From the IMG/VR virus record IMGVR_UViG_2654587570_000012: a stretch of DNA of 5,189 nt; one strand, given 5' to 3'. The position numbers were made by a program, and so were the translations under genes. How positions within the stretch are numbered: position 1 is the first letter of the stretch; each line of letters opens with the position of its first letter. The DNA comes from a virus (Duplodnaviria; Heunggongvirae; Uroviricota; Caudoviricetes). The notes beneath the pieces are model-generated. The model saw only the letters and a list, made by a program, of their open reading frames with translations, was not told where the DNA came from and did no database searches. Of this stretch, positions 1,962 to 4,152 are shown one piece after another.

Positions 1962-2759
1962 TTATAGCTCCTTTAATCGAGGCGGTTCTGGTAGAGGCAT
2001 CCAGTGGGTTACACCGCCAATTGGCTCATCGTCGTCGTACTCCAATGCGGTTATATAGAACCCGTCACGACGAGAATAAGAAATCCCGGACATTACAATG
2101 CCATCCGAAACAACAATAATGTCACCCGTTTCTTTCGGCATTCGCTCACTACAGCTTATCCAACCATCCGGAGTCACCGGAAGCGAGAACGGCAGCACAT
2201 CTCTGTGAACAAGTTTTTGCTGTGACAGGTTATCCAGAACTTTCTGTACTGCTGCATCACCGAATACACCAAGCGCATCTGCCATAACTCCTACAACCTG
2301 ATAAGCCTCAGCGCATACCGTGGATAAACCATCCGGAATTACCGGAGAGTTGCCGGGTTCTTTAATGTGCAAGCGAGGCTCACCATCTTTTGGTTCAGGC
2401 CACTGGCGCTCCATGTTGATCTTCAATTTATCTTCCATAGCAGCGGTAATTTCAGCATCGCTGATGCCAGCACGGCGCTGTGCATCCCACAACAGGAAAT
2501 GCATATCAGCCCACTCGCTGAGATCGTCTGGTTCGGCTGCGGCTTCCAGAGCCTCTTTTGAGAGGTGTTTCAGTGGACCAATGGGGCCAACGCAGCCAAA
2601 TGTGGAGTCAGACCATTTGGCATGCTCGTGGCGAATCAGTTCGCGTTCCAGTGATGCCAGTGCAATTCGTGCCAGTTCCATTTGTTCGCCACGAGTAAGC
2701 CCGTTTTCAAGCGGATTTTTAATGAACAATTCAATACGTTCTTTGGTAATAGTGGTCAT
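1962..2759 (-). CDS. Two-domain cargo protein (265 aa): N-terminal MazG-like all-alpha NTP pyrophosphohydrolase (DUF550, dATP/dGTP diphosphohydrolase-type), C-terminal DUF551
   Basis: Seen: ATG at 2759 preceded by AAGGA (7-nt spacer); N-terminal half has the acidic pattern SKEALEAAAEPDDLSEWADMHFLLWDAQRRAGISDAEI (E-x2-E ... E-x2-D on consecutive helices); C-terminus ends GWISCSERMPKE...GVTHWMPLPEPPRLKEL. Established knowledge: E/D-rich helical motifs are typical of MazG-type pyrophosphohydrolases; the THWMPLPEPP tail is the DUF551 hallmark in lambdoid phage proteins. Domain names are from memory, not a search. Confidence 0.75.
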   Translation of the reverse strand: MTTITKERIELFIKNPLENGLTRGEQMELARIALASLERELIRHEHAKWSDSTFGCVGPIGPLKHLSKEALEAAAEPDDLSEWADMHFLLWDAQRRAGISDAEITAAMEDKLKINMERQWPEPKDGEPRLHIKEPGNSPVIPDGLSTVCAEAYQVVGVMADALGVFGDAAVQKVLDNLSQQKLVHRDVLPFSLPVTPDGWISCSERMPKETGDIIVVSDGIVMSGISYSRRDGFYITALEYDDDEPIGGVTHWMPLPEPPRLKEL

Positions 2760-2769
2760 TTGTTAGTCC

Positions 2770-3525
2770 TTAAAGTGCTAGTTGCAATTGCATTTCAAAG
2801 CGGTCGCGTTGTTCACAATACGCAAGAGAACCAGGGCTATTGTGTGCCTCAATCCGTTCTACCATTAATGCTGCGCGTGTCTCTTTACTTGCAGGTGCAT
2901 AAGCCCCAGACCAGGCTTTATCAATACCGATGTTTCGAGCGACGTTCGTACTATCTGCGCTGGCTAAGGGTAATTTTGTGAATATCAGCGGATTTAACAT
3001 GCGCAATCCATGTAGTTTCGTAACCGGCTGACCATGCCCATCAACAATGTGACGAATCAGGTCTTTCATTCTGGCTACCGCAAGAGTTGGGCGCTTTACG
3101 TCATAGTCGCCACAACTACCGATAGCCACTCGCGGAAACTCATTGCACAAATGAATAAATCGCTCGTCACTTTCATTCATGTGCCACACTGGAACGCCAG
3201 CTAGTTTTCCGTGAGGCCACTCATTCAGAAGCGCATCATTTTCCTCCTCTCCGCCATCAATAACATCCGGGATAATGGCAAAATCGAATCCTGGGTGATT
3301 CTTCCAGCGAGCAACAAACTCGTAGTAATCGCTCCAGTCGATTTTGTTTTTGCCAGCTGCTTTCCAGGCGGTGAATGCACCGTTGTCCAGCGCGAACGAC
3401 TGACAGTATTCAGCCGCGAGATTGATCTGGCCTGAATGCGCAAAACTGATAAACGCATGTCGCCCTTTCCATGCTCTCATTGCGCACGTATCAGGAGTAA
3501 TAGGCCCACCGTGGTAGTGAATCAT
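2770..3525 (-). CDS. tRNA-guanine-transglycosylase (TGT)-like catalytic-core protein lacking the zinc subdomain; candidate DpdA-type 7-deazaguanine DNA transglycosylase (251 aa)
   Basis: Seen: start chosen at ATG 3525 (AAAGGAG Shine-Dalgarno; TGAgATG coupling to the ea22-like stop) rather than the track's ATG 3567, which overlaps ea22 by 41 nt. Motifs that line up in order with bacterial TGT as I recall it: LDNGAF (res 46-51) vs TDSGGF; FAIIPD (res 82-88) vs MIFDEC; VAIGSCGD vs YAVGGLAVGE; ASADSTNVARN (res 188-198) vs DCVMPTRNARN. The protein stops about 50 aa after the ARN motif, so the Cys/His zinc site is absent. Inference: TGT-superfamily enzyme, most plausibly DpdA-like; motif-level only. 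Confidence 0.55.
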   Translation of the reverse strand: MIHYHGGPITPDTCAMRAWKGRHAFISFAHSGQINLAAEYCQSFALDNGAFTAWKAAGKNKIDWSDYYEFVARWKNHPGFDFAIIPDVIDGGEEENDALLNEWPHGKLAGVPVWHMNESDERFIHLCNEFPRVAIGSCGDYDVKRPTLAVARMKDLIRHIVDGHGQPVTKLHGLRMLNPLIFTKLPLASADSTNVARNIGIDKAWSGAYAPASKETRAALMVERIEAHNSPGSLAYCEQRDRFEMQLQLAL

Positions 3526-3526
3526 C

Positions 3527-3934
3527 TCACTCTCCTTTGATGCGAATGCCAGTAGCGCGGATTGCATCGATGACTTCAGAAACTTTGTATGCCATTACCG
3601 TTTGGTAATCATCGTGAAAATCTGTTCGATGAAGCATGCTGCTACGTTCCGGGAGCAGTATTTCCCGCGCTTCCAGTTCTGCAATGCGCTTTTTTGCTGC
3701 TTCCAGTTCATCCAGTAATTCCAGCACGGTAGCCGGATTAGCCTTGGCAACAAAATCCCGGACTGGCTTACAATCAATCTCCGCAATGGGTTGATACGAT
3801 GTGTAGCCATGCTGTCTTGTATAACTACCGTGACGAATAACGAAAAAATCACCATTTATTTTTTTAGCCTGCCACTTATCTTCACCGGCTTTCTCTGCCG
3901 CTTCACGCAGTGCCTGAGAGTTAATTTCGCTCAC
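3527..3934 (-). CDS. ea22: Ead/Ea22-like protein (135 aa, GTG start)
   Basis: Seen: GTG start at 3934 with AGAGAGG Shine-Dalgarno 6 nt upstream and GTGA overlap with the upstream stop; N-terminus MSEINSQALREAAEKAGEDKWQ...INGDFFVIRHG and a coiled-coil segment LELLDELEAAKKRIAELEAR. Established knowledge: a conserved QALREAAEKA-type N-terminus with a variable middle is typical of ead/Ea22-family proteins. Shorter than lambda Ea22 (182 aa). Confidence 0.7.
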   Translation of the reverse strand: MSEINSQALREAAEKAGEDKWQAKKINGDFFVIRHGSYTRQHGYTSYQPIAEIDCKPVRDFVAKANPATVLELLDELEAAKKRIAELEAREILLPERSSMLHRTDFHDDYQTVMAYKVSEVIDAIRATGIRIKGE

Positions 3935-4152
3935 TTCGAACCTCTCTGTTTACTGATAAGCTCCAGATCCTCCTGGCAACTTGCACAAGTCCGACAACCC
4001 TGAACGACCAGGCGTCTTCGTTCATCTATGGGATCGCCACACTCACAACAATGAGTGGCGGATATAGTCTGGTAGTTCAGACGACGCATTTTTATTGCTG
4101 TATTGCGCTGTAATTCTTCAATTTCTGATGCTGAATCAATGATGTCCGCCAT
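3931..4152 (-). CDS. TraR/DksA-family C4 zinc-finger protein (73 aa), at the lambda orf73 position
   Basis: Seen: MADIIDSASEIEELQRNTAIKMRRLNYQTISATHCCECGDPIDERRRLVVQGCRTCASCQEDLE with the C-x2-C ... C-x2-C spacing of TraR/DksA C4 fingers; its stop overlaps the ea22-like GTG. Established knowledge: lambda carries a 73-aa TraR homolog in the exo-xis region that acts on host RNA polymerase. Confidence 0.75.
   Translation of the reverse strand: MADIIDSASEIEELQRNTAIKMRRLNYQTISATHCCECGDPIDERRRLVVQGCRTCASCQEDLELISKQRGSK

Follow-up and report, generated by a model that had tools for sequence, protein, structure and literature searches.

The DNA analyzed in this study (hereafter, the window) is a 5,189-nucleotide stretch of a Caudoviricetes virus, IMG/VR record IMGVR_UViG_2654587570_000012, and we focused on an open reading frame (ORF) on its minus strand that encodes a protein with DUF550 and DUF551 domains. 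The window corresponds to the end of a prophage beside torS in Escherichia coli, and at least 80% of it is present in 80 of 5426 complete genomes. Its minus strand is a string of lambdoid early-left genes in the order int-xis-orf55-ea8.5-[DUF550-DUF551 gene]-dpdA-ea22-dksA/traR, with exo-bet-gam-kil-cIII beyond and torS adjoining (Table 1). The minus-strand junction between the dpdA-like gene and the DUF550-DUF551 gene reads CTT-TAA(2772-2770)-GGACTAACAA-ATG(2759-2757). The 10-nucleotide gap between the stop and the ATG, and the gene's own Shine-Dalgarno sequence, had both been described in an earlier note made from the sequence alone, and both are borne out by our reading of the sequence.

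The DUF550-DUF551 protein matches 7991 database proteins at E ≤ 1e-5, a similarity far above chance. Near-identical copies are labeled 'DUF550 domain-containing protein' or 'dATP/dGTP pyrophosphohydrolase domain-containing protein', and the latter is the RefSeq product name. The protein has zero matches in NCBIfam, and a single-sequence search of the PDB returned nothing useful, the lone hit being a chance match to a GST (E 0.84). In Pfam, the enzyme domain matches PF04447 (formerly DUF550, now "dATP/dGTP pyrophosphohydrolase") with 141.4 bits against a cutoff of 23 (E 1.1e-41, model positions 1-96 of 97), and the C-terminal residues 199-260 match PF04448 (DUF551) with 52.8 bits against a cutoff of 22 (E 7.5e-14, model positions 1-67 of 68). 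The earlier note had read the protein as a MazG-type nucleoside triphosphate (NTP) pyrophosphohydrolase fused to DUF551. The motifs on which it relied are present (EALEAAAE at residues 69-76, EWADMHFLLWD at 82-92, and THWMPLPEPP at 251-260), and both domain assignments hold. The architecture is richer than that fusion, as the protein also contains a 37-residue N-terminal leader and a separate central module of 55-60 residues, which the note did not mention.

An AlphaFold2 model was built on an alignment of 118 sequences, for which the 118 proteins were drawn from 50%-identity clusters. It has four helices at residues 23-54, 60-75, 80-96, and 101-117, and the predicted local distance difference test (pLDDT) score of the domain is mostly 84-91, with lower values at its C-terminal end. 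The predicted model thus contains a four-helix bundle, as in the all-alpha NTP pyrophosphohydrolase (MazG-HisE) superfamily. The best solved match in Foldseek is cyanophage S-2L MazZ (7ODY; probability 1.0, target template modeling score 0.72, 29% identity), and YpjD (2GTA) and Bacillus MazG (5IE9) rank below the 7ODY chains. The family sequence profile also reaches 7ODY (E 1.1e-4), and an hhalign comparison with the MazZ product from the S-2L genome gave a probability of 89.5% (E 2e-6, 92 columns). Furthermore, S-2L MazZ itself belongs to PF04447 (44.4 bits).

The catalytic residues of the two enzymes align one-to-one. With residue roles taken from the MazZ structure paper (PMC8342488), the paired ExxE ... 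ExxD residues E35, E38, E50, and D53 of MazZ align with E69, E72, E82, and D85 of the DUF550-DUF551 protein, and the pocket residues contributed by the second chain (K76, N80, R83, and W85 in MazZ) are kept as K111, N115, R118, and W120. In the guanine pocket, D92 corresponds to MazZ D60, yet F88 replaces I56, and F54 replaces the O6-contacting N20. E69, E72, E82, D85, D92, K111, N115, R118, and W120 are each at least 90% conserved in the 118 homologs; over the whole enzyme domain, 53 positions reach this level, every catalytic residue among them. The sole biochemically characterized relatives are S-2L MazZ, which is (d)GTP-specific, and the DUF550 protein of Acinetobacter phage SH-Ab 15497, a pyrophosphohydrolase specific for dGTP/dATP (PMC8342488; PMC12884076). 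Because the metal ligands and the guanine contact of MazZ are kept, and because the characterized relatives have such specificity, it is a well-supported inference from sequence and predicted structure that the protein is an active enzyme converting (d)GTP/(d)ATP to the (d)NMP and pyrophosphate.

The DUF550-DUF551 protein is a mosaic of four exchangeable blocks: the leader, the enzyme domain, the central module, and DUF551. The leader is covered by phrog_3323, phrog_10451, and phrog_660, which extend over residues 1-48 only, whereas phrog_28884 covers residues 145-195 of the central module. The pLDDT score falls below 50 at residues 137-167 and 181-196. A 20-nucleotide direct repeat brackets the central module in frame; its two copies are 90% identical and lie 165 nucleotides (55 codons) apart. 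The motif encoded by the repeat, PV(I/T)PDG(L/W), is present in 38 of 63 related proteins, mostly at the boundary preceding the C-terminal module. Since the repeat flanks a 55-residue module and a relative at locus L008 lacks precisely that module, the sequences suggest recombination at junction microhomologies. A Foldseek search with the whole-protein model gave no meaningful match for the DUF551 part.

Table 1 Positions of the genes, protein blocks, and sequence elements in the window.
Feature	Position	Strand	Remarks
int	1-1074	minus	
xis	1052-1270	minus	
55-residue ORF (orf55)	1310-1477	minus	
ea8.5-like gene	1566-1865	minus	
DUF550-DUF551 ORF	1962-2759	minus	complete, 265 residues plus stop, ATG start; EaA-family mosaic protein
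DUF551 (PF04448)	1980-2165	minus	residues 199-260; predicted four-stranded small beta-barrel
Direct repeat, copy 2	2162-2181		AACCATCCGGAGTCACCGGA; encodes PVTPDGW
Central module	2166-2345	minus	residues 139-198; two predicted helices, low confidence; separately exchangeable
Direct repeat, copy 1	2327-2346		AACCATCCGGAATTACCGGA; encodes junction motif PVIPDGL
PF04447 MazZ-type all-alpha (d)NTP pyrophosphohydrolase domain	2349-2636	minus	residues 42-137
Second acidic motif, E82-W-A-D85 ... D92	2484-2516	minus	equivalents: MazZ E50, D53 (metal), D60 (guanine 2-amino contact)
First acidic motif, E69-A-L-E72	2544-2555	minus	equivalents: MazZ metal ligands E35, E38
N-terminal leader	2649-2759	minus	residues 1-37, MTTITKERIELF...ARIALASLE (MTTITKE start); common to many proteins of differing cargo encoded downstream of DpdA
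Shine-Dalgarno AAGGA	2767-2771	minus	7 nucleotides before the ATG; overlaps the dpdA-like TAA stop (2772-2770)
DpdA/TGT-like gene	2770-3567 as listed	minus	upstream neighbor of the DUF550-DUF551 ORF
Ead/Ea22-like gene	3527-3934	minus	
DksA/TraR zinc-finger gene	3931-4152	minus	DUF1382 gene further on
Intrinsic-terminator-like hairpins, four good	4230-4212, 1547-1528, 1516-1497, 1320-1301	minus	partition the early-left genes

The upstream neighbor (ORF 2770-3567) matches phrog_887 'queuine tRNA-ribosyltransferase' with E 5e-104, and searches of Pfam, NCBIfam, and the PDB gave no sequence match for it. The listed start is the ATG at 3567. However, its homologs all begin at residue 15 (MIHYHGGP), and the TGA stop of the Ea22-like gene (3529-3527) is followed on the minus strand by one nucleotide and then by an ATG at 3525-3523. 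Therefore, the real start is probably at 3525, giving a protein of 251 residues.

The earlier note had viewed this gene and the DUF550-DUF551 gene as one cargo unit, leaving as an alternative that the two are unrelated and simply co-located. We examined the pairing in a window-type set of 80 IMG/VR loci, in which DpdA shares 87-100% identity with that of the window, or 84 loci (L001-L084) with four reference loci from other collections. The gene directly downstream of window-type DpdA nearly always encodes an MTTIT...-type protein, and 63 distinct proteins occur in the 84 loci, but DUF550 is present at only 26 of the 80 from IMG/VR. Among 49 representative downstream proteins, DUF550 is found in 13 and DUF551 in 23, and the remaining proteins bear unrelated modules, including RusA, NinX, and Ead/Ea22. 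The cargo behind the shared MTTITKE...ARIALASLE leader also includes a CxxC-rich module, coiled coils, and several DUF551 variants, and DpdA alleles that are 98-100% identical are followed by an identical leader with differing cargo. A custom DUF550 hidden Markov model gave 14 extra weak matches (22-25 bits) at the window-type loci, in which it picked up 191-residue proteins of the 'D00' type and their close variants, and one more in L171; these were rejected as non-members because neither Pfam (at E ≤ 0.001) nor tblastn finds DUF550 there.

The pairing is also broken from the other side. In Escherichia sp. E1V33, a protein 98% identical to the DUF550-DUF551 protein is encoded behind a 74-residue ORF, and DpdA is not in that slot. 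In phage P22 the gene order is eaD-eaI-eaA, whereas in Salmonella phage BTP1 it is ead-dpdA-eaA, also with a 10-nucleotide gap. From these gene orders, the position upstream of eaA can be filled by different genes (eaI in P22; dpdA in BTP1 and in the window; the 74-residue ORF in E1V33). Around other DpdA clades, DUF550 is rare within 6 kb: it was found at 8 of 80 SfI-type loci, at a distance of 1-3 kb, and at 1 of 45 HK106-type loci. Conversely, among 32 species-level DUF550 loci in GTDB genomes, DpdA lies within 6 kb in only two. At these two loci, L225 (Enterobacter bugandensis) and L226 (Huaxiibacter chinensis), an SfI-type DpdA gene lies 1.4-2.4 kb upstream on the same strand and is not adjacent. 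In GenBank phages, DpdA homologs occur in 108 records, chiefly of Vibrio and Salmonella phages, with five from Klebsiella, and DUF550 occurs in 441 records, 363 of which are Klebsiella phages. One record, OL617041.1 (Flyfo siphovirus Tbat1_6), contains a distant DpdA homolog (45% identity, beside a VUT-family transporter gene) and DUF550 approximately 4 kb apart on opposite strands, and is possibly an independent co-occurrence.

In complete E. coli genomes, the full DpdA allele was found in 201, the DUF550 allele in 500, and the two joined in 138. The joined pair is frequent, as expected from linkage in one successful prophage lineage, and the genomes are clonally sampled. Thus, adjacency does extend beyond this locus, to BTP1 and the 138 E. 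coli genomes, but it is not conserved across independent lineages or in both directions. The idea of one cargo unit is not supported by this comparison, as the pairing breaks both ways at near-identical alleles and is rare around other DpdA clades; the alternative of simple co-location is the best fit to the co-occurrence data. The DUF550-DUF551 gene does not depend on the DpdA-like gene, and its adjacency to DpdA looks like cassette shuffling in the exo-xis region, not a working partnership.

A functional partnership would still be conceivable if editing of the guanine pool, by lowering dGTP or by clearing salvage-made 7-deaza-dGTP, aided 7-deazaguanine modification, so that the two genes formed one functional cargo. 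The closely spaced genes on the same strand, the identical arrangement in BTP1, the joined pair in 138 of the 201 E. coli genomes in which the full DpdA allele was found, and the conserved guanine N2-contact residue are in line with this idea, and there is a single, anecdotal precedent in Cellulophaga phage phiST, where a MazG/dUTPase-like gene lies beside the DpdA3 cluster (PMC10516641). We nevertheless regard it as quite improbable, given the other cargo that follows 98-100% identical DpdA alleles, the E1V33 protein that sits behind a different ORF, the low counts around SfI-type and HK106-type DpdA and around DUF550 loci, and the presence of EaA without DpdA in P22, together with the disparity of 363 DUF550 records to five DpdA records among Klebsiella phages. 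The chemistry points the same way. In the Z-genome pathway, MazZ feeds PurZ. DpdA-dependent modification differs, as all known cases (7-deazaguanine insertion) are post-replicative base exchange (PMC10516641), and DpdA therefore needs no exclusion or pool editing of deoxynucleoside triphosphates (dNTPs). Hydrolysis of GTP would, if anything, lower the precursor of preQ0 synthesis. Another reading places the enzyme in anti-defense, where it would remove (p)ppGpp, another guanine signal, or a toxic nucleotide and thereby blunt early abortive infection. The phage MazG-like protein Atd1 hydrolyzes ppGpp and protects against TIR-STING and retron-TIR (bioRxiv 10.1101/2022.06.09.495361), the guanine N2 contact is kept in the domain, and the early-left accessory region is, in related phages, also home to known anti-host genes such as gam, abc2, and ral. 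However, both characterized PF04447 members act on dGTP/GTP or dGTP/dATP, Atd1 comes from a different MazG branch, and no anti-defense annotation supports the idea; comparison of the DUF550-DUF551 protein with the PADLOC defense-system models gave no match at E ≤ 0.01. Alarmone hydrolysis is accordingly an unlikely role.

The extreme mosaicism of the locus and the frameshifted or split copies in some lysogens (E. coli UTAK-6, L029, and the L026 fusion to int) might instead indicate that the ORF is decaying debris that arose by recombination and has no activity maintained by selection. This we consider very improbable, since the ORF is intact in the window, conservation of the domain over the 118 proteins extends to every catalytic residue, and the domain is retained in several families of virulent and temperate phages. 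In L026, a 413-residue ORF (6806-8047) arises from an in-frame fusion in which the DUF550 protein, broken off within DUF551, continues into the C-terminal two-thirds of an integrase; it is apparently what a deletion left of the ea-xis-int segment. In L004 (E. coli UTAK-6), dpdA contains a frameshift and the gene for the DUF550 protein is split; the same prophage also encodes an 'Nmad5 family putative nucleotide modification protein' at 10626-11094, outside the window and beyond cIII, as a second gene of the early-left operon related to nucleotide or DNA modification. A more speculative and rather doubtful view is that the slot after DpdA holds 'plug-and-play' early proteins, in which the constant leader and DUF551, as a Tudor-like adaptor, would bring interchangeable effectors to a common host target, with the short in-frame PVxPDGW repeats as recombination joints. 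The DUF550 version would then act locally as an anti-defense or replication-control effector, depleting or cleaning up guanine and adenine nucleotides, or alarmones, and together with DpdA would form a variable counter-defense islet. Finally, a prophage-expressed defense by dNTP depletion was set aside, given that the pL operon containing the gene is repressed and that a search for a minus-strand promoter-like site found none.

We propose that the gene belongs to the EaA family, is an intact accessory gene within the exo-xis ('ea') region of a lambdoid E. coli prophage, and encodes a MazZ-type enzyme; to this assignment of identity and biochemical class we give a probability of roughly 0.7. 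Judging from lambdoid gene order, it would be expressed as a delayed-early gene from pL. The DUF550-DUF551 gene and the DpdA-like gene lie in one strand-continuous gene string and may share one transcript; no convincing terminator was found between them. The string also includes the ea22-like and ea8.5-like genes and is bounded by strong minus-strand terminators at 4230-4212 and 1547-1497. Terminator-like sites number 15 in total against 5.3 expected, and those on the minus strand include a tandem pair (1547-1497) just downstream of the ea8.5-like gene and a strong site at 4230-4212. Two hairpins of this type inside the ORF (2346-2332 and 2074-2061) were dismissed as 5-bp stems within coding sequence. 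The enzyme domain would dimerize like MazZ, as the conserved second-chain pocket residues suggest, and would use Mg2+/Mn2+ to cut (d)GTP, possibly also dATP, to the monophosphate and pyrophosphate. DUF551 is more plausibly a binding or adaptor module than an enzyme. Candidate purposes of the protein are counter-defense, or control of the nucleotide pool in connection with replication and lysogeny, both of which the exo-xis region is known to affect.

Public annotation and the literature already contain the domain pair and the family names and describe the exo-xis region as mosaic. Our literature search found no function for EaA or DUF550 among lambdoid and P22-like phages. Should the enzyme be active, a widespread class of temperate enterobacterial phages, Shiga toxin-converting and P22-like phages among them, would express an early dGTP/dATP-splitting enzyme without a modified-base genome that needs one, and its purpose could be pool control, replication timing, or counter-defense. 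For 7-deazaguanine DNA modification, the DUF550-DUF551 gene is unsuitable as either marker or accessory.

The closest known counterparts are the EaA proteins of P22 and BTP1, which contain the same PF04447 domain (79% and 77% identity, respectively, over approximately 97 residues) and are encoded in the same genomic slot, flanked by the ead/ea22-like gene and xis-int. BTP1 EaA also has the same MTTITKE-type start and the same 10-nucleotide spacing from a dpdA gene directly upstream, whereas in P22 eaI takes the place of dpdA. Both EaA proteins differ in being 317-321 residues long, with another leader extension and other C-terminal modules, and in lacking DUF551. S-2L MazZ, a (d)GTP-specific enzyme of the MazG-HisE fold, belongs to the same Pfam family and is the best structural match, and it shares the four metal ligands, the guanine N2 contact, and the second-chain pocket. 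In contrast, it is only approximately 30% identical, is a stand-alone protein of 105 residues whose gene lies between datZ and purZ, provides dGMP from which 2-aminoadenine is made, and has N20 where the DUF550-DUF551 protein has F54. The annotations of the window and of the 11-kb L004 region list no PurZ- or DatZ-like product. Because purZ and datZ are absent beside the gene, whose neighbors are the DpdA-like and ea8.5-like genes, the DUF550-DUF551 protein is not a MazZ of a Z cluster (2-aminoadenine genome).

The DUF5664-DUF550 protein of SH-Ab 15497 shares DUF550 by its description in the literature rather than by sequence comparison, and the present name of the Pfam family presumably derives from its assay. 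It is fused to DUF5664 rather than to a leader and DUF551, and it belongs to the Z-genome pathway; DUF550 proteins of Z phages form their own clade (PMC12884076). Atd1 is likewise of phage origin and an all-alpha NTP pyrophosphohydrolase with activity on a guanine nucleotide, a likeness at the superfamily level only, and it differs in belonging to the canonical MazG branch, with (p)ppGpp as its substrate and no hydrolysis of ribonucleoside triphosphates. The portable C-terminal DUF551 recurs in other early-region proteins of prophages, namely YfdS of E. coli CPS-53 and variant V2 of Ea22 in Shiga toxin-converting phages, in both cases with other N-terminal partners. These DUF551 carriers are known by phenotypes only, which are H2O2 sensitivity for yfdS and a pro-lysogenic effect for Ea22 (PMC10834534; PMC4776307).
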